Positions 1 through 58,714 of a stretch of DNA of 64,000 nt are shown here, in pieces. Position 1 is the first letter of the stretch. Each line of letters begins with the position of its first letter. Under the pieces are notes generated by a model. The model made no database searches, was not told the DNA's origin, and was given only the letters and a program-made list of their open reading frames with translations. The position numbers and the translations under genes were made by a program. Origin of the DNA: Blastocystis sp. Blastoise (lineage: Eukaryota > Protista > Bigyra: Opalinata). The stretch spans positions 992,001-1,056,000 of the forward strand of contig JBBPEB010000005.1 in the NCBI GenBank assembly GCA_039096225.1, in the 5' to 3' direction.

Positions 1-705
1 ACTATACCTACATGTATTCAAGTTGATTATCAAAATACAAGATTAACTACTAATCATTTCAATATCAATAGAGCTTTACCATTTATACCTGAATATATAT
101 TATTTTGGTTTACAAATGGTTATAGTTCAACAACTATTAGTAATATAGCTAGTCCAAATGTATGGCCAACATATCAAAGTTGTTTGATTGGTGATGTTCA
201 AATGTTCCCTCAAACTGAATTCCCTACTCAAATGTATTATCATAATCTTACTACAAAAGGTCATGTCTTCAATAATGCAGAAACTACTAGTTTATCTTGT
301 CCTAATAAGAATTTATATTGTTTATGGGCTGATAATTCAAATCCTGAAACTATTCTTAAATATGATGAATGGATTAAACATCCTATTTATATTATTCCAA
401 CAAAATCATTAATGAATATCCAATCAGATAGTGGTATTGAATTGAATTTCGATTGTAATGTTGATGTTCATGATGTTAAATATGAACATATTGATTCATC
501 CACTGTTCCTGATGGACAAACGTGTCAATGGAAAAGTTACGTTGATCCAACAGATAAAAAGACAAAATATCATTGGGAAGCTGATACTGCCTCTTATAAG
601 GTAGCTTCTCATGCTGGTATTTATAAACATACTACTACTGATCTAAGTGATAGTTCTCCTTATACCTTACATATGATTGCTGTACGTAGTGTACGTGATA
701 TTTAA
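1..705 (+). CDS. Major capsid protein-like paralog 1 (C-terminal part; 5' end outside window)
   Basis: Frame is open from base 1 (TIPTCIQ...NRALPFIPEYILFWFTN...IGDVQMFPQTEFPT...LYCLWADNSNP...WIKHPIYIIP...SGIELNF...YTLH...VRD). It is collinear with the C-terminal half of ORF 885-2108. Confidence 0.7.
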   Translation, partial: TIPTCIQVDYQNTRLTTNHFNINRALPFIPEYILFWFTNGYSSTTISNIASPNVWPTYQSCLIGDVQMFPQTEFPTQMYYHNLTTKGHVFNNAETTSLSCPNKNLYCLWADNSNPETILKYDEWIKHPIYIIPTKSLMNIQSDSGIELNFDCNVDVHDVKYEHIDSSTVPDGQTCQWKSYVDPTDKKTKYHWEADTASYKVASHAGIYKHTTTDLSDSSPYTLHMIAVRSVRDI

Positions 706-884
706 ATTTAATATTTCTTACTTACTATTCTTAACGTTAACTTGTTTAATTAATTCTATTCTATTCTATAATACAATCATTTGTTTTGTTATAAAAATTA
801 AAATTAATTAATAATTATAAAATATTATTATTTTTTTTATTTTTTATTTTGTTAAAAAGAAATATATAAACAATAATTATTAAC

Positions 885-2108
885 ATGGAAGGATTCCCAA
901 GACAATTCTTACCTTCAAAGGCAAATCAAACTATTAAACCTGTACAAATTCCTATTCTAGTTTCTACAAGTCAGGATTTATTAAATCAACCTTATCCATT
1001 TGAATTCTTATATAATTCAGTGGATAGCCCTTATATTGATTTCAGTAATTCATTCTTAGAACTGAATTTCAATATTACTGGTACTAGAGACAAAAATTCA
1101 ACATCTTCAGTTGTACAACATTCTAATATCTATAGTATTATTGATAAGATTACTACAGATCTTACATTTGTATCTCCGACGGGTCAAGATATTCTTATTA
1201 ATTATTCTGAATCTTCTATTGAATCCAGTAAAGCAAGAAAATTTGTTACTATTAAAGAATTAAGTAAAGATGAAATTGATAAATCTATGTATAGTATGAC
1301 AGAATGCTTATATAATAACACGTTGAGTAGTATTGCTGGAATGGAAATGAAAGAAAAAGCTCAAGTTATTATTCCTTTATCTCTTATTACTGGTCTTGGT
1401 ACATTTGATTGTGCTATTAAAGTAAAATCTTTGAAGATGCAATTCGTTACAAATTATTTAAAGAATCTATTTACCGGTACCACTGTAATCACTGCATTGA
1501 AATTTGATCGTGTTTATATTCATCTTCAACAAATCTATGATATTAATTTTGGTAATGATCCACGTGCTTTGATTAAATGTATTCCTAATAATTGTCAGAT
1601 ATCTGCATTCACTACACCTGTTTATTCACAAGCATCAGTATCAGGTACACCAACTCCACAACAATTCTTATCCAATAGAAGTGTTGTTTTCGTTCCTGAT
1701 TATTGTATGTTATACTTCACAAATCAAGAGAAGAGCATGATTCCTATTAAAACTGAATTATTAAAATCATGTCAATTCCAAATTGGTGGTCAAAATATCT
1801 TACCAAAGACGGATTTCCCTACTACGTATAAAACAACGAATCCATCACAAATTATTCCTAATGCTATGCTTTATAATACTTGGAGATGTAATAGTCATCC
1901 TCAATCTCCTTTAAACGGTGAAAAGTGGTATGAACAACCTATTTATATATTCCCTATTTCAAGTGTTGTTGATGTCAATACGCGTAGTGGTTGTGAAGTT
2001 AATATCTCATTATTAACTGAATATACTGGTGGAACTGTTACTGGTTCTTATACTTTATATGCTCATTTTATATTTGTTAAATTTGTTAGAGATGGTGCTA
2101 CCAATTAA
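885..2108 (+). CDS. Double jelly-roll major capsid protein-like (Polinton/PLV type), 407 aa
   Basis: Size and beta-rich pattern. Polinton-MCP-like motifs YIDFSNSFLELNFNI, SNIYSIIDKI, VIIPLSLITG, P-DYCMLYF, IGGQNILP and PIYIFP. Adjacent to a penton-like gene and the ATPase. Confidence 0.75.
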   Translation: MEGFPRQFLPSKANQTIKPVQIPILVSTSQDLLNQPYPFEFLYNSVDSPYIDFSNSFLELNFNITGTRDKNSTSSVVQHSNIYSIIDKITTDLTFVSPTGQDILINYSESSIESSKARKFVTIKELSKDEIDKSMYSMTECLYNNTLSSIAGMEMKEKAQVIIPLSLITGLGTFDCAIKVKSLKMQFVTNYLKNLFTGTTVITALKFDRVYIHLQQIYDINFGNDPRALIKCIPNNCQISAFTTPVYSQASVSGTPTPQQFLSNRSVVFVPDYCMLYFTNQEKSMIPIKTELLKSCQFQIGGQNILPKTDFPTTYKTTNPSQIIPNAMLYNTWRCNSHPQSPLNGEKWYEQPIYIFPISSVVDVNTRSGCEVNISLLTEYTGGTVTGSYTLYAHFIFVKFVRDGATN

Positions 2109-2208
2109 TTTATTTATTTGATATTTTTATTATTTGTATCAACTTTATATTATTCTAAAAAAAAATATTGTTTTGTTTATAATTTCATAATTAATTCATT
2201 TAATAAAA

Positions 2209-2880
2209 ATGACATCAATATCTCATCTAAGTAAAATTACAAGTCAAATCTGTCATGAACAATTCAATTATACACTTGATCTAGTGGGTAAAAATATAAC
2301 TCATATCAATACATTAGTGAATACAAGTGATATCATCAATATTCCAGAATTCAATATTGAATTTTATGAAAATGCTGGTAGATTTACATTTCCAGCTGGA
2401 AATTATACTTTAGAAGTTTTTTTAGATCAATTATATGAAATTGGGAAAAAAATGAAATCCTATGTTGAAGGAGAACCTTATGGTTTCAGTTATAATAAAG
2501 AAACTAAAACTTTTAAATCAAATCATTATTTTGAATGTGGTCGTAGTGCTGGACTATTTAAATACTTAGGCATCAAATCAGTATACTTTTCACCGGGTGA
2601 TACAATCGTATTTACTGATGAATATATATCCAAGAATATATCATGGTATAAGATCTATATGTTACGTGTATATTGTGATATTATTAATAAAGATAATGAT
2701 TTGATTTCTATTCCTTTATATGCTAAACAAGGATTTGATAATACATTTGCTTTAAGTGATTTATCTATTCCATGTATTGATGGTAAATATACAGATATCC
2801 AATGGGAAGTATATGATCAATTAAATAATCCAATTGATTTATCAAATACAAATCTTTATATATACTTTACAGCATCTTAA
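2209..2880 (+). CDS. Minor capsid (penton) protein-like, 223 aa
   Basis: Motifs FPAGNYTL, LFKYLGI, LRVYCDII and IQWEVYDQLNNPIDL...IYF match the pattern of Polinton/PLV single-jelly-roll minor capsid proteins. Located between the MCP and the ATPase. Confidence 0.75.
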   Translation: MTSISHLSKITSQICHEQFNYTLDLVGKNITHINTLVNTSDIINIPEFNIEFYENAGRFTFPAGNYTLEVFLDQLYEIGKKMKSYVEGEPYGFSYNKETKTFKSNHYFECGRSAGLFKYLGIKSVYFSPGDTIVFTDEYISKNISWYKIYMLRVYCDIINKDNDLISIPLYAKQGFDNTFALSDLSIPCIDGKYTDIQWEVYDQLNNPIDLSNTNLYIYFTAS

Positions 2881-2950
2881 TAAAATCATTTATTTATCAT
2901 TAACTTATCATTAATTATTTTTTTTGTTTTGTTGATAAAAATCATATAAA

Positions 2951-3988
2951 ATGGTGAATAAAATAAATCCATTAAAAGAAACACGTAAAGGATGTGGAGT
3001 TTTAGAATTCAAATATGGAAAATCACATCATAAAACATATGAATCAAAATTTATATTGATTATTGCAAGAACATTCTCAGGTAAATCTTTCTTAACTGTG
3101 AACCTCTTATGTTCTATGGATCTTAAAAATAAATATAAACAAGTCACAGTAATTTGTCCTGATGCATCCAATAAGAATGAATGTTATACATCCTTTCAAG
3201 ATATTTGTGAACATGCTGGAATTGATTATAAATGGTATGATTCTGTAGATGATAAATTTAAAAAGATTAAAACTGTTGATGAATTAGTCAATACATATAA
3301 ATTACCAGAACATAATTTTATTGTATTGGATGATATCTATCCATTATCTAGACAAACCAAACAATTGATTGTATCTATATTATCTAAAGGTCGTCATTAT
3401 AAACAGAATGCTATTATATGTCTTCAAAGTCATACAGATGTTACCAATCAATCTATATTAAGTCAAGTATCTCATTTCTTTATTAATAGTCAAATCTTAA
3501 AACGTGATCCTGGATTCTTACCAGATAAATTAAAGATTATGCCATCAAATCTAAATGAAATTCTTACAGATGAAGAATTAATGAATGATCCACATCAATT
3601 CTTTATGTTAAAACAAGGTAGTGATGATTTAACGATATGGACTAATCCTGATTGTGGTAGTAAACAGAATGTATATAAGATGGTAAAGAAAAGGAAATGG
3701 ACAGAAGAAGATAGTGAAAAAGAGAAACGAGAAGAACAAGGTGAAGTATCAGGTAGTGGATTGAAACGTCCTAATGAACATATATCTACATATGAAAAGA
3801 AAATGAAGAAGTTTTTACCTGTTGAAGAAGAAGTCTCATTGAAAGGTATTGAACGAGATGAAAAAGATAAACCTAAAGAATCCATCTTACAAATCATACA
3901 AGATCAAATCATACAAGATAGTCAACGACGCATTTTCAATCCTTATTTAAATAAAAAGCATTATTCTGGTTATCCATCTTTTCATTAA
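2951..3988 (+). CDS. A32/FtsK-HerA family viral genome-packaging ATPase
   Basis: Walker A variant ILIIARTFSGKS, Walker B FIVLDD, and the A32-type arginine-finger/Q motif SKGRHYKQNAIICLQ. Confidence 0.9.
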   Translation: MVNKINPLKETRKGCGVLEFKYGKSHHKTYESKFILIIARTFSGKSFLTVNLLCSMDLKNKYKQVTVICPDASNKNECYTSFQDICEHAGIDYKWYDSVDDKFKKIKTVDELVNTYKLPEHNFIVLDDIYPLSRQTKQLIVSILSKGRHYKQNAIICLQSHTDVTNQSILSQVSHFFINSQILKRDPGFLPDKLKIMPSNLNEILTDEELMNDPHQFFMLKQGSDDLTIWTNPDCGSKQNVYKMVKKRKWTEEDSEKEKREEQGEVSGSGLKRPNEHISTYEKKMKKFLPVEEEVSLKGIERDEKDKPKESILQIIQDQIIQDSQRRIFNPYLNKKHYSGYPSFH

Positions 3989-4040
3989 TTTTTTATATTT
4001 TAATTTATTATATAAACCATAATTATTTTATTGTTTTGTT

Positions 4041-5066
4041 ATGAGTTCAATTACAAAAAGATATTTAAAACAAAATTGTGATCCACGATTATTTGGAGGA
4101 TCACCACCAAAATCAAATAGACGTGATCTTTATCATAAACGTTATGTAAGATATGGAGGAACTGGATTTGAAGAAATTGTTAGACAACAAACTAGAGATG
4201 CTGATTGGGCTGATTTTAAAAATGGTGTCTATACTGCATTACCTATTTTAGGTACATTAGGAGCATTTGCTGGATATAATTATTATCAGAAACGTAAAGA
4301 ACAAAAACGTCAAGAAAAAGCAAAAGAAGAAAAGAAAAGACAATTTGAAGAACATATTGAAGATGCTAATAGAGATGATGAATTATATAATGATGATGCT
4401 ACTTATCAACCAAAGAGAATAACAAGAAAAATGATGGCTGATGATGATAAAGATTTTGATGATAATGTTGTTGATGAAGATGATTATGGTCAAGGTACCC
4501 ATAGAAGGCATCAGAAACATCGTAAAGAACATGGGAGTCACCGAGAAAAAGAAAAGAAAACAAGTAAATTCGTTACTCCTCAAATAAGAATTATTGCTAA
4601 GAAGTCTATTCGTTCTAGTAATGTAAAATCTAATAAGAAGAAATTACAAGATATTAAAGAACGATTACCTAAAAATGATGAGCATGTGTCTGTACGTGAT
4701 ATTGTTAATGTTGTTATCGATAAAGAATATCCTATGGATCCAAAACAAAAGCATTCTATTATTGCGAATACTGCTATTAAAACTATTAAAACGATTGTTC
4801 CTATTGTAGTGAATGCATTAAAATACTATTATCCTTCTCTTGGTATCCCTATTGATTTCGCTTATAATATGATTACTACTGATGATGATAAGAAACGTAA
4901 AGAAACTGCTGATAACTATTTTAAAAATCCTAGTGGAAGTGGTGTTACAAAAGAGAATGCTGAACGTTGTGGTGGTGCTCTTGTCAACTCTACATCCTTT
5001 GATACTACTACTAATTTAATTATTAATCTTGTTCAATTCTTCTTAAAAAAATTTCATTTAAATTAA
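4041..5066 (+). CDS. Putative virion core protein precursor
   Basis: Intact 341-aa ORF with LFGG, RYGG, YGQG, SGSG and RCGG motifs, a hydrophobic segment (ALPILGTLGAFAGYNYY), and alternating acidic and basic blocks. Function is inferred from context. Confidence 0.55.
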   Translation: MSSITKRYLKQNCDPRLFGGSPPKSNRRDLYHKRYVRYGGTGFEEIVRQQTRDADWADFKNGVYTALPILGTLGAFAGYNYYQKRKEQKRQEKAKEEKKRQFEEHIEDANRDDELYNDDATYQPKRITRKMMADDDKDFDDNVVDEDDYGQGTHRRHQKHRKEHGSHREKEKKTSKFVTPQIRIIAKKSIRSSNVKSNKKKLQDIKERLPKNDEHVSVRDIVNVVIDKEYPMDPKQKHSIIANTAIKTIKTIVPIVVNALKYYYPSLGIPIDFAYNMITTDDDKKRKETADNYFKNPSGSGVTKENAERCGGALVNSTSFDTTTNLIINLVQFFLKKFHLN

Positions 5067-5142
5067 TTATTTTAACTTTTATTATTTCATAATTAATTAT
5101 TTGTTTTGTTATATAATTATTTTTAAATTAATACAATAAATA

Positions 5143-6321
5143 ATGCAAAGTAATTTAGGAGATAGTGTAACTCTCTATGATATTTTATCAAGAAATCAGA
5201 AAAAACAATCTTGGGATCCATGGTTACCGAATTCATATATTTGTCAAGATGAACAACCTGTACAACCTTTAGCACATGATCCTAATGCACAAGGATCTAT
5301 GTATAGCTCAATGGCAGTTCAAGCATTGAGAAATCATGGTCAATCAACTGAAGATATGTTTATAGCTACTATGAATTCAGCTAAAGCTAATGGAGATACT
5401 GCAAGATACTCATCTATGTTATCTCAATGGCAAACTAATTATGGTGTACCTACTACCAGTAAGATATGGTATGATGCTAGTAATCCTAATAATTATCAAT
5501 ATGAAACGTTATTATCTTCAATAAAAGGCTTAAATGGATTGAATTCAGAAGCATATAAACAGAATAAAGAGAATTATGAATTCTATTCAAATGCTCAAAA
5601 AGATATGTATGATCAATTAAACAATATTTCATATCAAATTAAAACAAATAATGATGACATTCATGCTGAAGCAGCATCAATGAAACAAAATATGACTAAT
5701 AATTATGAAAATCTACATAAAGATAACGAATATTTGAACTCAAAGATGGATACAAATGAAAATAATCGTCAATCAGATAATAATATTACAAACTCTAAAA
5801 TGGATACATATGAAAATAATCGTAAAAAAGATGTTAACAATACAAATTCGAAGATGGATAAATATGAAAATAATCGTCATCAAGACTACAACAATACACA
5901 ATCTAGAATGGATAAATATGAAAAGAATCGTCAAAATGATACTAATAAAACAAACGCTAAGATGGATGAATATGAAAGTAACCGTAAAAAAGATGCCAAA
6001 GCATTTGAAGATAAGATGGATGAACAAGGTATGCATTATGATATTGTTGAAAGTGGCATACCATTCACAATTTATGTTAATGGTAAGAACTCAAAAGTAA
6101 TATGTAATCAGCCAGAGTTTAAGGATCAGGTATTCCTTCTTAAAGATGAAAAGATTTATGTCAGATCAGCTGAAAAGTCAGGTTATATATATAAAAAGTA
6201 CGGAACAATGCCACTTGATGAATTCATTAGCAAATATAATGAAGGCTTATTTAATGAAAATAAGGCACTTCCTGATAAAGAACATAGTGGATTAAGAAAT
6301 CATCAAAACGATGAAACTTAA
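5143..6321 (+). CDS. Viral protein with 18-aa tandem repeat coiled coil (fibre/spike candidate)
   Basis: 392-aa ORF. Five full copies plus a partial copy of SKMDxYExNRxxDxNxTN at 54-bp spacing (5740, 5794, 5848, 5902, 5956, 6010). Confidence 0.6.
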   Translation: MQSNLGDSVTLYDILSRNQKKQSWDPWLPNSYICQDEQPVQPLAHDPNAQGSMYSSMAVQALRNHGQSTEDMFIATMNSAKANGDTARYSSMLSQWQTNYGVPTTSKIWYDASNPNNYQYETLLSSIKGLNGLNSEAYKQNKENYEFYSNAQKDMYDQLNNISYQIKTNNDDIHAEAASMKQNMTNNYENLHKDNEYLNSKMDTNENNRQSDNNITNSKMDTYENNRKKDVNNTNSKMDKYENNRHQDYNNTQSRMDKYEKNRQNDTNKTNAKMDEYESNRKKDAKAFEDKMDEQGMHYDIVESGIPFTIYVNGKNSKVICNQPEFKDQVFLLKDEKIYVRSAEKSGYIYKKYGTMPLDEFISKYNEGLFNENKALPDKEHSGLRNHQNDET

Positions 6322-6443
6322 TAGACTATATTATATTTACTTATTTATGCAATATTATGTTTGCCATTTAAGTTATAATTTTGTTAATATATATTTATTT
6401 TTTTGTTTTGTTTTAAAATTCATAATTATTTTATTAAACTAAA

Positions 6444-7934
6444 ATGATACAAAGTGCTCGTTTAAATGTTTCAAATAAAGGATTAGTAGGCGTAAATCAT
6501 CGTGCTACTGGTCATGAATATCGAAATTATATTGTTCCAGGATCTATTCCTGATGGAGAAGAACGTTATCCAATTAATTATTCTATTGCTCCAAATTCAT
6601 TATATGCTGTTAAGAAAATTGAAAGTAATATGGTCAATAGAGCAACATCCAATCCATTTTTCTCCTATTTATCAGAAACCAGACAAGATATTATACAAAG
6701 TTCCTTAGAAGAATCAGAAGAAAGTGAACCAATAGATGAAGGATCTGGGTTATTACCTGATGGTAGAATTCCGAAGAATTTCACAAGAAAACTCATTTAT
6801 GCTCATGATTATGTCTTACCTTATATGAAACAAAATCATATGTCTGATTATGCTAAATATTCTAGATTATTAAATCCTCGTACAATTGATAGTGCAATTG
6901 ATTTTACTAAAAGAGATCGTGATGGTTATTTATATTCTAGAGGTGGTAATTTATTTTCTAATATTTATCACACTGTGAGTGATGTATATAATGTGTCTGA
7001 TAAATTAACTGGAGGTATTAATAACATCACTCATGGAATAAGTAATGCTGTTGATTATGGTGCAAATAAATTCAAAGATCTCAAGAATTGGTGGAGAGAT
7101 ATTAATGTTGATCCACAAGAAGGATTCAATGATATTAAAGGAAAACTTGTAAGTGATAGAAACAATTTATATGATAATTGGAAATTAACTGATGATAATG
7201 AAGCTAAGAAAAATAATAAAATATTAGCTGATAACTATTTCAGATTTGCTCATATGTCAGGTAATGATACTAAAGAACAAAGACTTAACAAAAAGGTATC
7301 TTTAGATAATCAAGCAACAACATTTCATAAAAATTATATTCCATATGCAGAAAACCCAACATTTGTTAATAAAGTTGTTAATACTGCAACAAATGTATCA
7401 AAACCTGTGTATAATGGCGTTAAGAAAGTTGCAAACTCTATTGTTAGTGGTACAAAGAACGCGTTTAATAGTTTTTCTAATTGGTGGTATGGTAAAAATC
7501 CAGAGGAAGAAATACCACAAACAGAAAATCCAATAGAAACAAATAATAATGTTATACCAACTTCTTCATCTACCCCTGATACTCTAACTCTAGAAAATAT
7601 TCATAATATTACCATAGAAGATTCAAATCCTCCAAATTTAATTCCTCTTATGAATGATCCTACTGTTCCTTTACCTGATACTGTTCCAATGTCTCAAGCA
7701 ATAACGAATAAATTCACTCCAAATATTACACCTGTAGCCCCGATTCCTAATCCAGTAGAAAATGTCACTCTTGAAAATAATAATAAACGAAATAAAAAAG
7801 AAGATGATGAATTTCAATCATTTGATGAAGATGATGGTGAGGTATTTTATGATCTCGAAGAAGGTAATGGATTACGTAGAAAAAGACGTATTTCAAAAAA
7901 TAAAAAATTAAGAAATAAACGTAGAAAACATTAG
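6444..7934 (+). CDS. Putative virion core / membrane-penetration precursor (adenovirus pVI-like organisation)
   Basis: 496 aa. EGSG, SRGG and LTGG motifs followed by amphipathic helices ending in NWW, a Pro-rich region, an acidic patch, and a C-terminal EGNG-LRRKRR basic tail. Confidence 0.55.
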   Translation: MIQSARLNVSNKGLVGVNHRATGHEYRNYIVPGSIPDGEERYPINYSIAPNSLYAVKKIESNMVNRATSNPFFSYLSETRQDIIQSSLEESEESEPIDEGSGLLPDGRIPKNFTRKLIYAHDYVLPYMKQNHMSDYAKYSRLLNPRTIDSAIDFTKRDRDGYLYSRGGNLFSNIYHTVSDVYNVSDKLTGGINNITHGISNAVDYGANKFKDLKNWWRDINVDPQEGFNDIKGKLVSDRNNLYDNWKLTDDNEAKKNNKILADNYFRFAHMSGNDTKEQRLNKKVSLDNQATTFHKNYIPYAENPTFVNKVVNTATNVSKPVYNGVKKVANSIVSGTKNAFNSFSNWWYGKNPEEEIPQTENPIETNNNVIPTSSSTPDTLTLENIHNITIEDSNPPNLIPLMNDPTVPLPDTVPMSQAITNKFTPNITPVAPIPNPVENVTLENNNKRNKKEDDEFQSFDEDDGEVFYDLEEGNGLRRKRRISKNKKLRNKRRKH

Positions 7935-7983
7935 TTAATTTTATTTTGTTTTATTTATTATTATTTTTAAAAACTAAACAATT

Positions 7984-7992
7984 TGTTTTGTT
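7984..7992 (+). terminator. TGTTTTGTT putative polyadenylation-associated motif (one of many copies)
   Basis: The same 9-mer occurs 36-83 nt after each of the seven viral + strand stop codons, and also after host and hAT genes (e.g. 25268, 40622, 41660). Confidence 0.6.
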
Positions 7993-8008
7993 ATTTATAA
8001 AAATTAAT

Positions 8009-8176
8009 TTAAAAATCAATAAAATTCTTGATATAATCTTCGTAATCATCCTCACTTTCAGTTTGAATAGTATCCATTTCAGAATCACTATCACTTAATT
8101 CATCAACTTCAAAGTTTCCATAAGGTTTCCAAGTACCTTGTTTATAATCTGGAGCAAATTGCTTTGGAGAATTCAT
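8009..8176 (-). CDS. Small acidic protein, 55 aa (below ORF-track cutoff)
   Basis: MNSPKQFAPDYKQGTWKPYGNFEVDELSDSDSEMDTIQTESEDDYEDYIKNFIDF*. Coding-like composition between AT-rich spacers, convergent with the structural genes. Confidence 0.65.
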   Translation of the reverse strand: MNSPKQFAPDYKQGTWKPYGNFEVDELSDSDSEMDTIQTESEDDYEDYIKNFIDF

Positions 8177-8221
8177 AATAAATAGTATAAAAATAGAAAA
8201 AATTCACAATACAATTTTATT

Positions 8222-8251
8222 GTTCTAGAATGTTCTAGAATGTTCTCGAAA
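8222..8251. promoter_or_regulatory. Perfect heat-shock-element-like array (six alternating nTTCn/nGAAn pentamers)
   Basis: gTTCt aGAAt gTTCt aGAAt gTTCt cGAAa, 46-75 bp upstream of the ATG at 8176. Confidence 0.55.
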
Positions 8252-8852
8252 ATTTTTAGTTTTCCATATCGGTCGGTCATGTTTCCAAAAGTCTCTCGTT
8301 ATAGTCGTGGTGGTGGGTACATCTTTTTACAAGACCACACCACCACCAGCTTTTCTTTCACCCACTATAAATACATACCTTGATCACTTTACTCTTTTTA
8401 TATAATTTTTTTATGATTATCATGACTTTTTATATTATTTATTGATCACTATACATACATTTTTATTTTTATATATTCCCGTGATTATTTTTATTATTTC
8501 TTTTTAGATAGAACCATCCATTTCATCTTTTCTCTATATAAAGGGAGGGTCGGGGTGTGTGTTTATTTAGCACATTCTGTGCTTCTTTTCGTATTTCTTT
8601 CTGTATTCCCGTGATTATTTTACTCACTTTACCAACGATGGAGTCATTTTCCATGAATATTCCCTGTAAAGGGGAGGGTTGGACTGTGTATTTTATTTCT
8701 TTTATGATTACTATGAGTTTCTCCTTGATCACTTTACGTTTCACGTTGGAATCGGAACACAAATAAATTAAAAATAAATAAACATGGGAAAAAATAAATA
8801 CACACACACACTACCCTACACTCCCATGGTTATTTTACTTCAGAAATGTTAT

Positions 8853-8997
8853 TAATTCTTCCGTCGAGAACAAAAAGGGGGGATGACTTCCCCGCTTATG
8901 GCTGCGCGCGTCGCGCAGACTCTATGCGGGGTTTGCATACCCCCTTCTGCAGTTCGAAGAACGGAAGAATTATTAGTTTAACGAATCAACTAATACT
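8853..8997. other. GC-rich imperfect palindrome plus small hairpin at the putative element terminus
   Basis: Stems 8853-8864/8961-8972 (12 bp perfect), 8875-8885/8936-8946, 8890-8895/8926-8931 and 8902-8908/8912-8918. Second hairpin 8971-8978/8988-8995. Confidence 0.7.
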
Positions 8998-10331
8998 ATA
9001 TAAACAATAAATAGAATGAATATATAAAATATAAAAAAAACTATAAGAATAAATATATATTTCTACTAATAAATACTATAAGACCTATATATACAAAACT
9101 ATAGATAAAAGTAAATAATTAAATTAAAAATAAATAATTATATAAAACAATACTATTTAATATATATCTGAATTAAATATATCAAATAAATTAAATAAAA
9201 TAACATAAAAATAATAATAATAAAAATATTTATATATACCTAAAAAATGAAAAGGAAGAATTTTCTTTTTTAATTAAACCACTTTTTCAAGATTCGGTAA
9301 CTACCCTAGAGTAATATAGATAGTGAATAAAGTAAAATAAATAAAAGAATAAATAAAAATAAATATATACAGAAATGAATGTCTCCCATTCTCTCACTTT
9401 TGTTTTGATTTGAATTTATTTTGATTTAAAATCGTCAACCATTAGTACATAAGTGATTTGAAGAATCTCATTCAATTACAACCTAAATAAATAAAATAGA
9501 AATTAGACAAAATTATTATATTTTATATTTATATACTTTTGAAGAGACCTGTGTGACTAAAGTGAAGGCTTGAAACTGTTAGTGACACCTATAAGTTCTA
9601 AAAATAAATAAACGATAACATAATTACTGATTAAGTATTTGTATATAAAATAATTATAAAATATTTACTAGTATAAAGGTTCACAGACTTCCTGAGATAG
9701 TTGATGCTCGAAAATAAATGAAAAGCAATCAACAAAGCTGGATAAGCTTAAAAATAAATTTTTGATTTTTTAAAGAAATAAATTTTTTTTATACATTTTT
9801 TCTTTTGTTAGTTAAAGACTTTTTTTCGACCGATTTTTTTCTTTTTTTGTCTTAAACTGAACTCAAACCCTAACCCTAACCCTAGACAAGAAAAATGGTC
9901 CACCAGTGACAATTTTCTGACATTCATAAGAATGGCAACTTTATCATAATTCACATTCAATTCTATGTTCTTTCGAGTCTGTGAATTCGTTAGTATACGT
10001 GAATAATTCAATTAAGTAAATTGCCGAACAAAATTAAAAATGATTGTCCTAGATATTGTGGATAATTTCTTGAATATGTTATAGAAAGTCTTAAATTATC
10101 AGTTAATATACAAATAAAACATCTTACTATCAGTTTCTTAGATATAAATATATAAATATAAAACAACGAATTTATATGAGTGTCCACACAACATTATACC
10201 AAGTTTATTTTTGTTTTTGTGGTATAAATTACTTTCGTCGGTATAAAAAAAATTAAAGACCGATTTTTTCGTAATTTTGGTATAAATTTATGGGGAACCT
10301 GGTATAAAAGGGAAAAAGCTGCCCACCAGTG

Positions 10332-11898
10332 TATACTTTTTTATTAGTAAATAATATTTAAAATAATTAATAAGAAATAATGTCCCAAAATACTGATGGA
10401 CAACAACCAAACACTCAGACAACTTCAGAAACGTATAACTATTTATATATACCCTAATATATATAGTAATATATATAATTAGTATTATAGATATAACAAA
10501 TAGAACAATATAAAAAAAATTAAACGTGACATATATAATAAACATATATTATATTATATATCTAGTCTACTAAAGACTCTTGCTCTTATTTCTGTCATTA
10601 CACGACTAATACACTTTCTAATAGTACCACTATCAATAGACTTCCATTCATCACTTATTCTTTGTATAAAATCATCAATTCCATTCCATCTTGTTATGTT
10701 TCTTTCAGCATTTCCTTTCCATATACTGAATACATTTTCTATCGGGTTCATATCAGGACTATAAGGAGGACCATATATTACTGGGATCTCAAATTCATTA
10801 CATATATCATTTATAAGGCCTTTTTGGTGTACCGGCGCATTATCCATATATAAGCAAATATTCATATCATCTTCAGTATAATGAGTTAGTGCAGCACGTA
10901 GAAAATTACCAAAAACAGCTCCAGTAACAGAATTACTAAATAATTCTGTGTATCCAGCTCCAGTATTACTGATGGTTGCAATTGCTGTAAGAGATAATCT
11001 TTTTGATAAATGATGATAATATATTTTCTCACCTACTTTACCCCATCCATACTGCGAGAAATTGTTAAAAGACCAGTGCACTTCATCTAAATAAATTATT
11101 CTTTTACCTTCATGTATCATATTATCTATTTCATTGTATACTTCTATTCTTCTTGTTTTGTTATCATCATTATTTGAATTTTGACCACGTTTATAAAGCT
11201 TTTTGACATTAAAAGATGCACCAACATGTTCAGCCATACGACTACTATGTAGATGTTTTGCTACAGTGGCTTTAGAACAAAAAGAAGTTGTATTACTTTC
11301 TTTCAACGATTTCAATTCTTCTTCAGCTTGTATTCTTACATCTTCAGGTACATCATAAGTTTCAGTCACCCTTTCGAAGATTGAATTAGTAGAAGTATCA
11401 GATAATACTAAGACAGCATCATTGAGAGTTAATTTTGGATTTATAATGAACATATTCTTCAGTTTTTTGGACATATTAGGTGTAATAATAGCATGCCTAC
11501 CACTCTTTCTACGTTCTTTTATTAAAGGAGTATTGTTTACTAACTTTCTTACATATCGTTTAACTATATCTAGCTTTATATCTAACTGGAGTGAATAATC
11601 TTCTGGTGTCCATCGAACACCGTGAATTGACCACAAGTCCATTAATCGTTGTTTTTCAGAATCAGGTATCTTAGTATTCTTTCTTTTCCCAGTCTCAGTA
11701 GCCAGAAACGAATCATGATCACGTTGATTAATTAAGGAAATACGAGACGAGCGTCTTGCATTACTATATATATTAGGGTATATATAAATAGTTATACGTT
11801 TCTGAAGTTGTCTGAGTGTTTGGTTGTTGTCCATCAGTATTCTGGGACATTATTTCTTATTAATTATTTTAAATATTATTTACTAATAAAAAAGTATA
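10332..11898 (-). mobile_element. Tc1/IS630-family DNA transposon with 139-bp inverted repeats
   Basis: 10332-10470 is the reverse complement of 11760-11898 (one mismatch seen). Both outer ends are TA, consistent with a TA target duplication. The repeats enclose a DDE transposase. Confidence 0.75.
10554..11850 (-). CDS. DD34E transposase (IS630/Tc1, DDE_3)
   Basis: IIYLDE, LYMDNAPVH and PPYSPDMNPIENVFS; 34 residues between the second D and the E. Probable start at 11850 with a 34-nt GT-AG intron at 11764-11797 (alternative unspliced start at 11834). Confidence 0.9.
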
Positions 11899-15862: not shown

Positions 15863-16853
15863 TTCTAAGAAACGATAAAACAATAAAAAGTATTATTTCT
15901 TCTCAATTTTATTTTATTTATGGAAATTCACTAGGAAACAGTCATCATTTATAAAATTCAATGGGTTTTTCTTTTGTTATTAAAACTCATATTTTTCAAA
16001 ACATAATAGAGTTGATGTTTTGATTTATTTTGATTTATATTGATTTAATTTTTATTTTTCAATATATAGAGAAGACCTAGATCCGTTTTTGAAAACATAA
16101 TAGAAACATTGAATTCTTCAGATTTACTAAAGTCATTCTTCTGTTGTGAAACTCATTCTAAAAGGCAAAGCATGATAGCTATAATAATTAATATAAAAGA
16201 ATAGCAACAAAAAAGATTTATTTCTAGAAAAAAAGTATGAATTATCCTTTTTGATATATCACAAAGAATCTAAAGCACCATTCTTTTTTTTATTTTTTAA
16301 CAAACACTATTTATTCTTAGATATATCATTTATTGTCACATATTTTGTTTACATTAAATATTGATATTTTTTTAAATATAATAAAGAATATTTTTTAAAG
16401 AATATAGACATATATCATTATATAGTTGAATTGGATTTATACATTATTTATATCTAATATTAATACAAAACAAGTAGTATAATTTAAAATGTATGAAATA
16501 TATATATCTATTATTTATATGAATATAATGAATATATATATAGTTGATAATTACTAAATAGTATTAGAATTCATGTTTATTAAGAGAAAAGTCGAAAACA
16601 TCAGTTGGAAAAAAAGAAAATATATATATATAATAAATAATAAATGGATACAAACTTGACAAAAAGATATTTCTAGATGAAAATTAGAATAGAATTGGGG
16701 TTAAATAATATATTTAAAATATTAGAATAGATTAACAATGTAAATATATTTTATGATTTTAAAAAAATATATCAATAATATAAATATATTTTTTGATTTT
16801 TATAAAATATATATTAATAATATAAATATATTCTAATGATAAATATAAATATA

Positions 16854-18545: not shown

Positions 18546-20520
18546 TAGAGCGGTTCAAAAGTTGCAACAAGTTGCGACAAGTTGTGATAGTATTTAAAAA
18601 CATTTTTTCCTTGATAAATAAAACAAATTTTTAATAAAGAAAACATAAATAAAACATAAAAATACAAATTATGAATTAATTAAGAAAAAATATTAATCAA
18701 GATTAATCTCTGAAACATTACTAAAAGTAGATAAATTATCAAAAAGTTGAAAAAAAAATCATCAAGAGAATCAGATAAAAGACTATTTGAATTGAAATTT
18801 CTATCATAAACATCAGTTTCATGTTCATTTGATAATATTTCATTATCATCTATAATTGTTATTGAAGAATCATTAATTGTAGTATCTATTTCATCTTCAA
18901 TAATCATTGAATCATTTTGAATTGAAATAGTATCTATTTGTGGATTCATATAGAAAAATAAATCTCTGAACAAATTTTCATCAGAATAACCAAATTTCTT
19001 CTTTGTAAATAAAATATTCATAAAAGAGAAAGATCTTTCTACACTAACAGTAGTAGAAGGTAATTGAAGAATGAAAGTAATTATTTTAGAAATAGAAGGA
19101 ATTTGTTTAAGAATAGGAAAATATAATTTTATCATTTGTTCTTTACTTATCATATTTTGAGGAAAACATTCATTTTATTTCTTCTCATTATCTATAAAAT
19201 CTTTCAATTTTGAAACACATAATAAATAATCTTTCTTTTCTATATCTAAAAATTCAGATGAAGTGAAAGAAGGAAATGAAGAAGACATCAAGAAAGGATT
19301 TTCATTATAAAATATCATTTGTTTCTTATTCATTGTTTTGATTTCTTTCAATTTTAATAATGTATTCGTAAAACATATATAATATAAAATAATAATAAAT
19401 AATAAATATACTTTTCTTATATTCTTGAATAAATGAAGATTGAACATTTGATAAATTATTTTCTTCACATATTTCATTCACTATCATAATTATATTATCT
19501 TTTGAATTCTTCAATTCTTCTTCAATTTCATCTATCAAACTAGAAACATTACAACATTGAAAATTATCATTGGATAATAATTTTAATATTTCTTCAAACA
19601 TTATTCCACTCTTCAAGAGAATCGATATTTTGATTTGTAAAGAAGAAGATAATTGATTATCTTGAAGAATATTCAATATTTCTTTATCTTTTTCACTTAA
19701 CATATCCAATGTTTCTAAATATTCATAGAATGATTTCAAATATTTAAAATGTTTCAAAATATATCTTAATGATTTATACCAAGATATCCATCGTGTTTCT
19801 TTAAATAAGAAAAGAAAGAAGACGAAGGAAGATTATTTATCTTTAAAAAGGATAACCATATATCATTTTTCTTTCTAAAGAAACGAAATGATGAATTAAT
19901 GAGATTAATAAATGATTTAGTATTAATAAAACCATCTTTTAGTTTCTCAGCTACTAAATTAATCATATGCATAAAACATCCACAATAAATTCCATCACTA
20001 AAAATCGATTCATAATTATTACCAGCATTTCGCATAGTATTACAGTTATCAGTGTGAAACGATTTGAATTGTTTTCTTTTAATGTTCCATTCTTCTAATG
20101 TATCTTGAATGATAGAAAGAAAAATATTAGATTTTTGATTTTCCATTCGTTTCAAGTTTATTAAGTAGAAAGGTTCATTCAAATTGAAAGAATTCAATCT
20201 TCTTACGATTATTGATAAATAATTAGAACCAGCATCTGAGGTAGAAGAATCACATAGAACAGCTAGAGAACATTTATCTAAACTCATTTTTACATATTGA
20301 ATACGTTCATCATACAATTTAGGTATAATTCGTTTTTGAATAGTATTATAACATGGCATATTATTATTATTCATTTCAAATATATTTTTCAATTTCATTC
20401 TAAATTGAGGTTTCTTGAATTTATTAATAGGAATACATTCTTCTAAAAATAATTCTATTAATTTTTCAAATCTTAAATAATTCACATTAGATTCAATAAT
20501 TCTATTGTTATTATTATTAG
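18546..20520 (-). mobile_element. hAT transposon, 5'-truncated copy B
   Basis: TIR TAGAGCGGTTCAAAAGTTGC at 18546. Transposase fragments on the - strand are near-identical to copy A. Cut off at 20520 by another TIR. Confidence 0.85.
18680..20510 (-). pseudogene. hAT transposase, truncated/disrupted
   Basis: Motifs AVLCDSST, FHTDN, CFMHMINL (CxxH), TRW (in a shifted frame) and LPSTTVSVERSFS. Frameshift and in-frame stop; lacks the N-terminal zinc finger. Confidence 0.85.
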
Positions 20521-20918
20521 TAGAGCGGTTCAAAAGTTGCGATAAAAGTTGTGACAAGTTGCGACAAAAGTTGCGACAAAGTTGCGACAAGTTGTGACAA
20601 GTTGCGACACTTTTTATATCTCATTTGTGAGCCATATATTTATTATATAATAAATTTATATATATAATTATAGAGAGATTTACATGATGATTACATAAAT
20701 AATTTTTAAATAAATTAAAAATAAGTTTAATACTCTTAATAAGCGTTTTAAACACTAAAAATTGAATTTTTAAAGTCAAAATTATTCTATAAATATCGTT
20801 ATTTTAATCATTTTAACAATCTTTTAACGATTTTTAAAATATTATATTATTTTTATATTATAAGAATAATGTTATTAAATATAAAAAGTGAAAAATTGCA
20901 TGTCATAGATAGAGCGGT
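20521..20918 (-). mobile_element. Inverted right end of the non-autonomous hAT derivative
   Basis: Reverse complement of ~23533-23918, beginning with the TIR and AAGTTGCGAC subterminal repeats and ending in a 9-bp TIR stub. Confidence 0.8.
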
Positions 20919-21510
20919 TAGAGCGGTTCAAAAGTTGCGACAAATTTCACAACTTGTCGCAACTTGTCGCAATTTGTCGCAACTTTTTTAATCATGAATA
21001 ATGGCGAGAGTCCCGTAATTATTTTATTAATTTGGCAATTAAAAAAGACTTGTTTAAAAAAAGAATTCAGTGTCGCAATTTGTCACAACTTTGTCACAAC
21101 TTTTCATTTAAACATATATAGACCTATTTTACATTTATATAAAATATGATAATTTATGAAATTCATAGTGGTGAATATAATAAGCATCAAGAATTATTTA
21201 AATACTTAATTCAAACAAAGAAAAACATTAAAAATACTTTTCAAAAAATCATGAATATTTTTTTTACAGTCAAAAAAATGAAATATTCACGGGACATTAT
21301 TAATTTTCAGTCATTTTAAAATGTATAAATAATTGAAAGAAATCATCTCATTTTCATTAATTTATATTTCTATATAAATCGTTCTTTCAATATAGATTCA
21401 TTCATCTATTCATAAAGTCTTCTTTAATACTCATTTCTATCAATAAAATATCATTCTAAGAATCAAAAGAAGTATATATATGTATTCATCATTCTTAATT
21501 ATCTTTAGAT

Positions 21511-24500
21511 ATGGTTAAAAAAACAATGAAACAATCTAATAATCATAAAGTGAAAAGAAAAGAAAAGAAGAAGTCTTCATCTACTAAGAAAAGTGAGAAT
21601 GTTAGAACGAGAATCTACAAAATGAATCCAATAAGTCGTTTAACAAAAATAAAATTATCATCCAGTATGAATGAAGAAGAAAAGAAATGTTTCATATCAA
21701 AGAATAATAATCTTCGTTGTATTTATTGTAATTGTATTGTAGATCATAAAAGATTATCTTCTATTAATAAACATCTCAATACTGATATGCATATTTCTAA
21801 TATGAATTCATTCATGAAAGAAAAGTCTGCTACTGTATCTTCTGTAAAGAAAACTAATACTAAAAATAGAATTATTGAATCTAATGTGAATTATATAAGA
21901 TTTGAAAAATTAATAGAATTATTTTTAGAAGAATGTATTCCTATTAATAAATTCAAGAAACCTCAATTTAGAATGAAATTGAAAAATATATTTGAAATGA
22001 ATAATAATAATATGCCATGTTATAATACTATTCAAAAACGAATTATACCTAAATTATATGATGAACGTATTCAATATGTAAAAATGAATTTAGATAAATG
22101 TTCTCTAGCTGTTCTATGTGATTCTTCTACCTCAGATGCTGGTTCTAATTATTTATCAATAATCGTAAGAAGATTGAATTCTTTCAATTTGAATGAACCT
22201 TTCTACTTAATAAACTTGAAACGAATGGAAAATCAAAAATCTAATAATTATCTTTCTATCATTCAAGATACATTAGAAGAATGGAATATTAGAAGAAAAC
22301 AGTTTAATCGTTTCATACAGATAACTGTAATACTATGCGAATAGAGCGGTTCAAAAGTTGCGACAAATCGAGTTGCGACAAATTTCACAACTTGTCGCAA
22401 CTTGTCGCAATTTGTCGCAACTTTTTTAACCATTAATAATGGCGAGAGTACCGCGATTATTTTATTAATTTGGCAATTAAAAAAGACTTGTTTAAAAAAT
22501 GAATTCAGTGTCGCAATTTGTCACAACTTTGTCACAACTTTTCATTTAAACATATATTCAATTAATATTTTATATAATAGAATATTTCATTATATAAATA
22601 AAGTAGTAACAAATATATATACCAAATTTCATTTTATAAAAATGAAAAGATCATATGAAATGAATTAGAGTAAGAATTCAAAATATTTTGAATAATTTTT
22701 TTACAGTCAAAAATTTGATTTATTTACGGGATAAAACCATTTTTGACTCATTTTTGAAATTACATTTTTTAATCAAAATTCAAATGAATTTCAATTTTAT
22801 TTTCTTTGCATTATTTATCCATTTTCAATTGAAATCATAGTTTGTATTATTTATAGCATTTAATAATGTGAATGATTTCATTAATACATTGATTTTAGAT
22901 CTTTTTGAAATGATTTATTTTTTATCAACTCATTTTATCATCTAATTAAGCATATTATATTTATAATTGACTATTAATTATCATATAGATACATATTTAT
23001 ATCATAATGATTCATTATATGATGTTTAATGAAGAATGTTAAAAATTGAATTTTGATGAAATTCAATAATTTGAATATATATGTATTCAATATCTTATTA
23101 AAGACTCATACGAAAGAAATGAATCAATTTTTTAAATATTATATGCTTAATGAGCTCATTTTGTCTTCAATGAAGCTTTTATGACATTCAATTCTTCACT
23201 TTTTATATTTAATAACATTATTTTGATAATATAAAAATAATATCATACTTTAAAAATCGTTAAAAGAATTAAAAAATGATTAAAATAAGTATATTTATCT
23301 AATGAATTTTTCTTATGAATTTCAAAAATTTCAATTTTTAGTGTTTAAAACGCTTATTTTGTGTATTAAACTTATTTTTAATTTATTTAAAAATTATTTA
23401 TGTAATCATCATGTAAATATCTTTATAATTATATATTTAAATATATTTTATAATAAATATATGACTTACAAATGAGATATAAAAAGTGTCACAACTGTCT
23501 TAACTTGTCGCAACTTTTCTCACAACTTTTGAACCGCTCTATCTATGACATTCAATTTTTCACTTTTTATATTTAATAACATTATTCTTATAATATAAAA
23601 ATAATATAATATTTTAAAAATCGTTAAAAGATTGTTAAAATGATTAAAATAACGATATTTATAGAATAAATTTGACTTTAAAAAATCAATTTTTAGTGTT
23701 TAAAACGCTTATTAAGAGTGTTAAACTTATTTTTAATTTATTTAAAAATTATTTATGTAATCATCATGTAAATCTCTCTATAATTATATATATAAATTTA
23801 TTATATAATAAATATATGGCTTACAAATGAGATATAAAAAGTGTCGCAACTTGTCGCAACTTGTCACAACTTTGTCGCAACTTGTCGCAACTTTTGTCGC
23901 AACTTTTGAACCGCTCTAATGCATATGATTAATTTAGTAGCTGAGAAACTAAAAGATGGTTTTATTAATACTAAATCATTTATTAATCTCATTAATTCAT
24001 CATTTCGTTTCTTTAGAAAGAAAAATGATTTATGGTTATCCTTTTTAAAGATAAATAATCTTCCTTCGTCTTCTTTCTTTTCTTATTTAAAGAAACACGA
24101 TGGATATCTTGGTATAAATCATTAAGATATATTTTGAAACATTTTAAATATTTGAAATCATTCTATGAATATTTAGAAACATTGGATATGTTAAGTGAAA
24201 AAGATAAAGAAATATTGAATATTCTTCAAGATAATCAATTATCTTCTTCTTTACAAATCAAAATATCGATTCTCTTGAAGAGTGGAATAATGTTTGAAGA
24301 AATATTAAAATTATTATCCAATGATAATTTTCAATGTTGTAATGTTTCTAGTTTGATAGATGAAATTGAAGAAGAATTGAAGAATTCAAAAGATAATATA
24401 ATTATGATAGTGAATGAAATATGTGAAGAAAATAATTTATCAAATGTTCAATCTTCATTTATTCAAGAATATAAGAAAAGTATATTTATTATTTATTATT

Positions 24501-25199
24501 ATTTTATATTATATATGTTTTACGAATACATTATTAAAATTGAAAGAAATCAAAACAATGAATAAGAAACAAATGATATTTTATAATGAAAATCCTTTCT
24601 TGATGTCTTCTTCATTTCCTTCTTTCACTTCATCTGAATTTTTAGATATAGAAAAGAAAGATTATTTATTATGTGTTTCAAAATTGAAAGATTTTATAGA
24701 TAATGAGAAGAAATAAAATGAATGTTTTCCTCAAAATATGATAAGTAAAGAACAAATGATAAAATTATATTTTCCTATTCTTAAACAAATTCCTTCTATT
24801 TCTAAAATAATTACTTTCATTCTTCAATTACCTTCTACTACTGTTAGTGTAGAAAGATATTTCTCTTTTATGAATATTTTATTTACAAAGAAGAAATTTG
24901 GTTATTCTGATGAAAATTTGTTTAGAGATTTATTTTTCTATATGAATTCACAAACAGATACTATTTCAATTCAAAATGATTCAATGATTATTGAAGATGA
25001 AATAGATACTACAATTAATGATTCTTCAATAACAATTATAGATGATAATGAAATATTATCAAATGAAAATGAAAATGAAGAAAAAAATACAAATTTCAAT
25101 TCAAATAGTGTTTTATCTGATTCTCTTGATGATATTTTATCAATTTCTTTTGATAATTTATCTACTTTCAGTAATGTTTCAGAGATCAATCTTGATTAA
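21511..25199 (+). pseudogene. hAT transposase (CGGBP1-like zinc finger), disrupted
   Basis: N-terminal CIYCNCIVDHKRLSSINKHLNTDMH finger, catalytic and dimerisation motifs. Interrupted at 22342-23918, with frameshifts and a stop at 24714. Confidence 0.85.
22342..23918 (+). mobile_element. Non-autonomous hAT derivative with one left end and two tandem right ends
   Basis: TIR at 22342 and reverse TIRs ending at 23541 and 23918. The ~350-bp right-end segment is duplicated. No coding capacity. Confidence 0.85.
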
Positions 25200-49447: not shown

Positions 49448-50046
49448 ATGAAATTTATTTTCCTATCAGGATATCTAAACAACAGAATGAGTATATGCTT
49501 ATAAACGAAATAGATACCTTATAACACATTTTGAACAAAACAAATTCTAGGGCAAACAATTAATGACAAGTTTTTAACGATGGGCTCAATGATAGAGAAT
49601 ATTGTAATAATACAAGACATGAAAAGAACATAAATTAAATAGAAGACAAATGAAGCAAATGAGTTAGAGAATCTGATGAGAAGAGAAGAAGGCATCCTGA
49701 AGAATGATAGAATTGGCTTTTAAGCCATGTATAAAGAGAATATATTATATATAAAGAGAAATCTATATTCCTCAAACATGAATATAGAATAAAAAGATAA
49801 TTAAATTCACTAGTGAAGCAGTTATTATATGGATATAAATAATTAATAAATAAACGTACATTATTATTGAATATACATATATAAAGAGATAGAAAGATAT
49901 AGAATAGCAATAGAAATGGTATATACTGTTTAAATTGATTTGCGCATACAAGTATAGCAAATAATCAATGAATAACAATATAAACATAAAAATCACATAA
50001 AAATAAAAACAATAATAATAATATATATATATTAGTATATCATTTT

Positions 50047-52744
<2,698 letters not shown>

Positions 52745-53173
52745 ACGGCTTTGGTGTGACAATACTTAGTATGTTAATGATATATAAAAGCAATAAAGCT
52801 TATTTTCGTCACTAGGAAACAGAATATAGAAGTAAAGCTGCAGATAAACCACAAAAAAACACATAAAGTATTAGTTTCATAGTGACGTATCCATTTACAA
52901 AAAGAAATTCGTTTTTTGCGTTTACGGTGAAATTGACACTCCTCTCTTAAGGAGAATCTTATTTCTTTCTATTTCTTTATTTTAATAGAATAAAATATCT
53001 ATACTTTAAAACAAAACAAATCATAGTTGTTTATTTAAATATTTTAATAAATAAATCTAAATACATTGACAGATAATAGTATACAAATGTAGATGAAAAA
53101 ATAGAAAAAAGTATATATCTGCATTAAAAGAAATGGTATGTTAAAATAAATGAATTTTGTATTGTATACACTC

Positions 53174-56920: not shown

Positions 56921-58714
<1,794 letters not shown>

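Follow-up and report, generated by a model that had tools for sequence, protein, structure and literature searches.

What is the block of intronless DNA that opens a 64,000-nucleotide stretch of the Blastocystis sp. Blastoise genome (contig JBBPEB010000005.1, positions 992,001 to 1,056,000; hereafter the window), and could it still serve a virus? The original prediction, drawn from the letters of the window, saw at positions 1-8997 the apparently intact morphogenesis module of an endogenous Polinton-like virus (PLV). Elements of this class, 15-30 kb in length, are reported to be widespread in protists (PMC10120064). Our analysis indicates that positions 1-8997 are probably the right-hand, capsid-building end of an integrated PLV with two major capsid protein (MCP) genes, which occurs in at least 20 intact colinear copies, whose transcripts are likely made and polyadenylated by the nuclear machinery of the host, and which likely still forms particles. 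The PLV is real, integrated and recently multiplied, and we regard its integration and the identity of its virion genes as near certain.

The virion module and its chromosomal copies

Seven plus-strand open reading frames (ORFs), with neither stops nor introns, cover 92% of positions 1-7934 (Table 1). They lie uninterrupted where the original prediction placed them, and the ORF map together with homology bears out its order of two MCP-like genes, a penton-like gene, an ATPase and three unknowns. For MCP1, encoded by the second ORF, we built an AlphaFold2 (AF2) model on an alignment comprising 42 of the 87 homologs, which reached a predicted local distance difference test score (pLDDT) of 72, compared with 32 for a single-sequence fold. 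The predicted fold consists of two eight-stranded jelly rolls. A jelly-roll fold for this protein had been set beforehand as a check on the prediction, and double jelly-roll capsids came out on top in both structural searches: the best Foldseek match in the PDB is the Sputnik MCP (E 4.9e-11), VIA aligned the model with the faustovirus MCP (Z 17.4, root-mean-square deviation 4.9, 322 aligned), and all of the top 15 VIA rows are double jelly-roll capsid or scaffold proteins. The best match in BFVD is a MELD virus protein (template modeling (TM) score 0.67, 13% identity). As modeled, MCP1 provides the double jelly-roll MCP of a Preplasmiviricota virion module.

The first ORF is cut by the window edge, and a 497-aa protein (P0281) shares its exact end. 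Judged by profile homology, this MCP2 is a paralog of MCP1: the fragment in the window matches the MCP1 profile at 98% by hhalign, and full-length MCP2 paralogs match it at 100% (E 7e-53, 31% identity over 352 columns). MCP2 carries a variable insertion of ~55 aa near the C-terminus, ahead of the last strand, in what is predicted to be the outer HI2 loop. Among the 87 matches to MCP1, 83 are unnamed ENA, Logan or NCBI clusters at 55-63% identity. Several contigs with these relatives reach 26.3-27.5 kb, which would be a plausible full element length. Our locus searches found no MCP1 loci in viral, metagenome or genome contigs, no MCP2 loci in viral contigs, and no related loci in the phage collection.

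The remaining two virion genes encode a likely penton and a packaging ATPase. Language-model features in the Atlas place the 2209-2880 product at 0.97 to clusters that include Sputnik V18/19 (26% of members) and DUF5901 (14%), and hhalign links it to a 227-232-aa protein of human-gut elements (89.7%, E 1.9e-6); its profile has no match among PDB sequences. The ATPase at 2951-3988, which the original prediction had assigned to the A32 type, retains Walker A GK, Walker B DD, RH and Q in 21 relatives, in an alignment that omitted P0099 (a repetitive 2054-aa protein, one of 25 matches) and three short fragments. Pox_A32 is matched at E<=0.01 by 12 of the 21 relatives and not by the protein of the window itself, and the best PDB match of the family profile is the packaging ATPase B204 of Sulfolobus turreted icosahedral virus (STIV; E 3.7e-12). 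The assignment holds, and the module has an FtsK-HerA/A32 packaging ATPase.

The copies of this module are far stronger evidence of a recently mobile, intact, integrated element than the openness of its ORFs. We found at least 19 further colinear copies, with all 19 accession clusters in the order MCP2-MCP1-penton-ATPase-ORF4-ORF5-ORF6; this is a lower bound on near-identical paralogs, which the source names hypothetical proteins of a Blastocystis species. Those located lie on contigs of 0.53-2.16 Mb, and the proteins of the window itself on a contig of 1.38 Mb, with host genes in the same window, as expected of multi-copy chromosomal integration by an endogenous PLV. Overall identity among copies is 89-100% outside the penton insert. 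Relative to the window copy, identity is 93-99.8% for MCP1, 89-99.6% for MCP2, 98.6-99.7% for the ATPase, 91-99% for ORF4, 97-98% for ORF5 and 92-99% for ORF6, and nine of ten other ATPase sequences are full length. MCP2 adjoins MCP1 in all 15 copies with a listed MCP2 accession. The MCP pair also occurs in two or three divergent families at 45-55% identity, with about seven more copies. The original prediction spoke of a recent or still-functional provirus; the near-identity of the copies supports recent, and still functional would follow only by inference.

Where the copies differ, the differences are concentrated on what is predicted to be the particle surface. Across nine MCP1 sequences, 35 variable positions fall into 26 in outer loops (162 residues), one in inner loops (82 residues) and eight in strands, and by segment six of eight outer and one of nine inner loops are variable, under an outer/inner assignment that applies the usual jelly-roll topology to the pLDDT-72 model. 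Two MCP1 alleles occur in mosaic. The penton has four allele types, in which the core keeps 130-133 of 134 residues identical (97-99%) and the insert only 36-45 of 85-88 (41-53%) in five of the six allele pairs. MCP2 variation is greatest in the C-terminal insert, and the ATPase is nearly invariant. This surface-limited pattern would fit, without proving, selection on the particle surface or exchange with a circulating pool.

A host-type signal at every gene end

The motif TTGTTTTGTT lies 36-83 nt past the stop of all seven plus-strand genes and nowhere in the 7.3 kb of coding sequence, and dinucleotide shuffles put its chance occurrence at 0.2-1.3% per gap. It also follows the last plus-strand gene, with no gene ahead, which argues against a promoter. 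The motif behind the ATPase gene abuts the ORF4 ATG with no gap (4032-4043), so that the promoter or 5' untranslated region of ORF4 has to extend into the 3' end of the ATPase gene; three other gaps have 31-32 nt between the motif and the following ATG. In the 55 kb of host DNA in the window we counted six motifs with 0.53 expected, at 25268, 40622, 41660 and 49290 on the plus strand and 49534-49542 and 53010-53018 on the minus strand, with 8-mers at 16299, 17971 and 34533 on the minus strand. Two cytochrome b5-like genes and a hAT ORF have a motif 69-117 nt past their stops; the hAT ORF that ends at 25199 has TGTTTTGTT next.

These positions suggest TGTTTTGTT or TGTTTGTT as the usual ending of host genes in this AT-rich genome of Blastocystis type. 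The latter is a known Blastocystis element located four bases past the poly(A) site, reported for ~96% of 2,419 genes (PMC4159000), and its mutation is reported to have cut reporter output 324-fold (PMC6395660). From sequence similarity, TTGTTTTGTT is likely a variant of this polyadenylation element that is one base longer than TGTTTGTT. Transcription by host RNA polymerase II with gene-by-gene 3' processing, as we infer, would favor a nuclear, helper-independent virus.

If the element works as its genes suggest, host RNA polymerase II would transcribe each gene, with the TGTTTTGTT element setting the mRNA 3' end. MCP1 trimers would form the shell, and MCP2 may enter mixed trimers or make a special capsomer from which a loop protrudes. 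The penton would close the vertices and display its swappable insert for host contact, and the ATPase would pump in a linear genome, likely of about 25-27 kb. ORF4 and ORF6 may be core proteins matured by a protease, with ORF5 as a fiber. The integration and replication genes would be located upstream, outside the window.

Layout, right end and surroundings

The original prediction described a structured non-coding end joined to intron-rich host DNA. Its structure is borne out: the last 138 nt (8860-8997) fold at -33.7 kcal/mol (z -5.95), with none of 200 shuffles as good, and a second folding test of the right end gave z -7.17. In all, 820 non-coding bases close the element, with short direct repeats, a GC-rich imperfect palindrome at ~8860-8965 and final bases ...ACT at 8997. 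Across this position GC content drops from 48-55% to 7-13%; positions 1-8997 have neither (TA)6+ nor (AAT)n tracts, of which the remainder of the window has 58 and 18, respectively. Read from the opposite strand, the end begins AGTATTAGT, near the (AGT)2 motif found at Maverick ends (PMC8097293) and not a perfect (AGT)2; only one end lies in the window, and no second copy of it was found within the window or among 35 gut loci described below. The join to host DNA stands in part, as the flank is AT-rich, intron-broken and eukaryotic with recognizable genes such as cytochrome b5, but no clean spliced gene could be constructed in 8998-9900, where AT-rich stretches bounded by GT..AG are present.

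Table 1. Features annotated in the element (ends as window positions)
Feature	Position	Strand	Basis
MCP2 3' half, 234 of 497 aa, second double jelly-roll capsid protein	1-705	+	profile homology to MCP1
TGTTTTGTT element, 77 nt past MCP2 stop	782-790	+	
MCP1, major capsid protein with a double jelly-roll fold	885-2108	+	AF2 fold, Foldseek, VIA
TGTTTTGTT element, 61 nt past MCP1 stop	2169-2177	+	
Likely minor capsid protein (penton), 223 aa	2209-2880	+	Atlas features, profile link
Penton hypervariable insert, residues ~47-142	about 2347-2634	+	allele comparison
TGTTTTGTT element, 45 nt past penton stop	2925-2933	+	
A32/FtsK-HerA-type genome packaging ATPase, 345 aa	2951-3988	+	motifs, Pox_A32, STIV B204
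TGTTTTGTT element, 44 nt past ATPase stop, immediately 5' of ORF4 ATG	4032-4040	+	
ORF4, 341 aa, basic (+16), GG/GxG sites; candidate core protein	4041-5066	+	motif/charge counts
TGTTTTGTT element, 36 nt past ORF4 stop	5102-5110	+	
ORF5, 392 aa; candidate fiber or stalk	5143-6321	+	tandem repeats
TGTTTTGTT element, 83 nt past ORF5 stop	6404-6412	+	
ORF6, 496 aa, basic C-terminal tail preceded by an acidic stretch, GG/GxG sites; candidate core/entry protein	6444-7934	+	
TGTTTTGTT element, 50 nt past ORF6 stop, back to back with a minus-strand one-mismatch copy at 7972-7980	7984-7992	+	
ORF7, 55 aa, acidic, possibly a gene	8009-8176	-	open frame, convergent with ORF6
Non-coding right end, candidate terminal inverted repeat (TIR)	8177-8997	.	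direct repeats, palindrome, GC step

The list of seven ORFs had overlooked ORF7, whose stop is followed after 29 nt by the minus-strand one-mismatch motif and whose exact sequence has no match in the protein collection. ORF4, ORF5 and ORF6 have no family in Pfam, PHROGs or NCBIfam, and these collections name no protein of the element save for weak P-loop matches. Matches to SLATT_6, C2c1, terminase and endolysin were rejected as generic or far below cut-off. ORF4 has 18 cluster members and ORF6 has 15 (92.5-98.6% identical). ORF5 holds 4.8 tandem units of 18 aa at 5737-5994 (54-nt period, score 285) and otherwise gave only weak coiled-coil-type matches below cut-off. GG/GxG sites are linked to adenain-type proteases. 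The ATPase, ORF4 and ORF6 together have five GxG[LVI] sites (0.46 expected), an excess that hints at a maturation protease (adenain/Ulp1). ORF6 also has two short, apparently amphipathic Trp-Trp segments, resembling one in a 327-aa GG-rich protein of a gut element (L029; profile match only 2%), and these may be akin to the membrane-lytic helix of adenovirus protein VI.

The element was originally contrasted with decayed hAT copies in its neighborhood. That contrast was selective, since the nearest transposon, of IS630/Tc1 type at 10332-11898, looks intact, with 139-nt TIRs that are 99% matched and a 426-aa DDE_3 transposase (10554-11834, minus strand) that starts inside the TIR and is found as the same protein on two contigs. 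Pieces of hAT-type transposase at 18680-25199 form a large inverted arrangement with 1220-nt arms (99% matched) and nested shorter arms. A telomere-like (CCCTAA)3 tract at 9866-9883 lies 0.9 kb from the virus end in the contig interior, and an (AAT)n microsatellite of ~500 nt at 57529-58319 is one of many within host introns.

Relatives, rival explanations and meaning

The element continues upstream of the window, and the 9 kb seen contain neither a protein-primed B polymerase (pPolB) nor an rve integrase. In two head-to-tail copy pairs about ten annotated genes lie between the copies, so the unseen part can hold no more than about that many. Searches with the ATPases found no loci in viral contigs, and only an alignment of distant ATPases led to loci, 35 of them from gut metagenomes (L001-L035). 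These carry pPolB (by motifs), rve, sometimes KilA-N, a penton homolog and one MCP each, the gene set reported in 2021 for the Blastocystis MELD virus (PMC8502044). Among the human-gut elements, L033 (at 470-20596), L029, L026, L007 and L020 are near-complete at 21-25 kb and have pPolB, rve, MCP, ATPase, penton, a 130-140-aa candidate cysteine protease and a ~1000-aa protein, with KilA-N in L007 and L026; Pfam misses their polymerase. They are without the Blastocystis 3' motif.

By sequence, the gut elements appear to be cousins of the window element rather than the same family. Their MCP cannot be aligned with the MCP1 and MCP2 profiles (hhalign 1.55% and 0.16%), so neither window MCP belongs to their sequence family and the window element is likely a separate lineage. 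Their ATPases are 24-34% identical to those of the window group and form separate 99-supported groups in a quick tree built with no cellular or reference outgroup, which leaves deep order and sisterhood open. ORF4-6 match none of nine gut-element gene families (best 2%), and the motif follows just one of 62 gut-element ORFs (>=180 aa, seven loci). What, then, lies upstream? A table in PMC12129017 lists 36 tyrosine-recombinase and 52 Pif1-like domains with zero rve and zero pPolB for a tortoise-derived isolate, counts that are not tied to these loci, and 0-6 and 1-4 of the two domains, respectively, for seven other isolates. PLVs lacking pPolB and rve, often with tyrosine integrases and SF1-helicase replicases, have been described (PMC11161782). 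If that isolate is the genome in which these copies sit, its counts would fit this description. The upstream genes are reasonably likely to be a tyrosine recombinase and a Pif1/Tlr1-type polymerase-helicase instead of pPolB and rve.

Several points weigh against the reading of a two-capsid, host-transcribed, particle-forming PLV. The evidence consists of assembled sequence, protein comparisons and models, and the left end, integrase, replicase and protease lie outside the window. Outer loops are tolerant of change in any case, there is linkage among the variable sites, only proteins were compared, and the loop assignment of MCP1 is the modeled one given above. A search for MCP2 homologs of greater length returned just five clusters, all from Blastocystis and none from metagenomes, so that relatives found elsewhere may have only one MCP. 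Among six host stops checked, one has the exact 9-mer, one an 8-mer, three a one-mismatch form and one nothing, and in isolates from tortoises PMC12129017 found no downstream element to be enriched. The Pif1 domains could come from Helitrons, and InterPro can miss such polymerases, as may be expected because Pfam missed the pPolB of L033. Finally, the ATPase of one copy is truncated (P0138, 255 aa).

That truncated copy would also suit a capsid-carrying transposon that spreads only within the genome, makes no particles and is intact owing to a recent burst. Such an element would need only recent transposition to explain near-identical copies, and the case for particles is made from genes. In the same set of copies, however, the ATPase is ~99% identical and the penton insert mostly 41-53% around an unchanged core, a contrast that only exchange with a divergent pool or selection acting on the exposed segment would explain, and the structural genes are all open in several families 45-55% apart; we consider the transposon unlikely. 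A virophage-like satellite, which forms particles only upon giant-virus infection as endogenous mavirus and Tetraselmis PLVs do, draws on the dependence of many endogenous PLVs on giant viruses and on Sputnik as the best solved-structure match of MCP1. Set against this, the scores of MCP1 to virophage and to nucleocytoplasmic large DNA virus capsids are tied and low (TM 0.4-0.5, 8-14% identity; 6-14% in the tie with the latter), the motif at the gene ends is common to host genes and fits nuclear host transcription, and for Blastocystis and gut egoviruses a preprint reports that it found no gene flow (10.1101/2024.03.23.586382). MCP1 has no Pfam match. We regard a satellite as rather improbable.

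There is very little probability that the element is another copy of the described MELD virus, a Polinton in the strict sense with pPolB and rve. The host genus is shared, MCP1 finds its best predicted-structure match in a MELD virus protein, the gut pPolB/rve elements have homologs of the penton and the ATPase, and the end reads AGT...ACT-like, but the capsid, ATPase, ORF4-6 and motif comparisons above all separate the two, as do gene order and the single MCP of each gut locus; these comparisons used the gut loci as stand-ins for the 2021 sequence itself. An assembly artefact, in which a free virus of a mixed culture was joined to host contigs, is extremely improbable. Some Blastocystis assemblies come from xenic cultures (PMC12129017), and the junction is known from assembly and not from reads. 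At least 20 mutually differing copies with conserved order on separate Mb-scale contigs nevertheless make a chimera unlikely, and the sharp, motif-bearing end and the 3' motif common to host genes also argue against it.

The integrated two-capsid PLV resembles other endogenous PLVs in its double jelly-roll MCP, likely penton, packaging ATPase, intronless dense block, many integrated copies and likely 15-30 kb length, and differs in having no match in Pfam, PHROGs, NCBIfam or IMG/VR scans. With the MELD virus, compared through its likely kin L001-L035, it shares the host genus, a homologous penton and ATPase and a similar MCP fold; these kin differ in having one MCP found instead of two, another gene order and accessory genes, pPolB with rve, and almost no 3' motif. 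Multiple MCP genes are reported as common in Trimcap PLVs, with mixed capsomers proposed (bioRxiv 10.64898/2026.06.19.733378). The likeness, by description, is a small genome with multiple MCP genes; Trimcap viruses have three highly divergent MCPs, as opposed to two tandem paralogs here, and a third could lie upstream. Polintons/Mavericks (Polintoviricetes) have the same virion module, AGT...ACT-like end and GG/GxG sites that would suit an adenain/Ulp1 protease, whereas their pPolB, rve, protease, TIR pair and 6-bp target site duplication are not visible in the window and the circumstantial evidence points to a tyrosine recombinase. The elements of Proteromonas lacertae, the closest host relative, are likewise many-copied in an anaerobic gut member of the Opalinata; that genome differs in being rich in pPolB (172), rve (54) and recognizable Pox_A32 (60) domains, a comparison of domain counts and not of MCP sequence.

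The original prediction also suggested an undescribed lineage. From our sequence searches the capsid lineage is likely new, as it appears undescribed in the sources searched; the wider claim is qualified by the MELD virus reported from Blastocystis in 2021 (PMC8502044), the Proteromonas capsid hits and the known multi-MCP PLVs. A table of the 2023 survey lists 285 MCP hits for Proteromonas and ten Blastocystis assemblies with no MCP count (PMC10120064 supplement). We found no account of these copies in the openly readable literature, though one could exist in preprint supplements that are closed or in papers under subscription; the text of PMC12129017 has neither 'polinton' nor 'endogenous', and its supplements have none of 'capsid', 'maverick' and 'polinton'. 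A survey of 7,103 genomes places Bigyra among protists with >1% viral regions (10.1101/2025.04.19.649669), and a 2026 review describes the source of reported Blastocystis viral genomes as unclear, virus-like particles as unexplained and viruses as unconfirmed (PMC12835684).

PLVs are a common class; it is the host, the intact multi-copy library, the surface-limited variation and the 3' signal that make the open question testable. Blastocystis is the commonest eukaryote of the vertebrate gut. Some 20 intact chromosomal copies with host-type mRNA signals tie the virus to a host in a way that metagenomes cannot, provide a cultured system where particles can be sought, and point to a likely host genus for more than 80 unnamed metagenomic capsid clusters, and the penton cassette variation offers a handle on PLV receptor use. 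If our reading of the motif is true, a downstream polyadenylation element one base longer exists in an AT-rich lineage reported to be without it, which challenges a published claim on the evolution of Blastocystis 3'-end processing. It is possible, and we propose it tentatively, that the copies belong to an undescribed family of autonomous, nucleus-transcribed, two-capsid DNA viruses that actively reinfect Blastocystis, with 20 to 27 intact proviruses swapping penton inserts and surface loops like serotypes and with close relatives widespread in metagenomes. If true, no earlier Blastocystis virus would have been tied to the chromosomes of its host, and the hexagonal particles that electron microscopy showed in the 1990s would have a candidate source.

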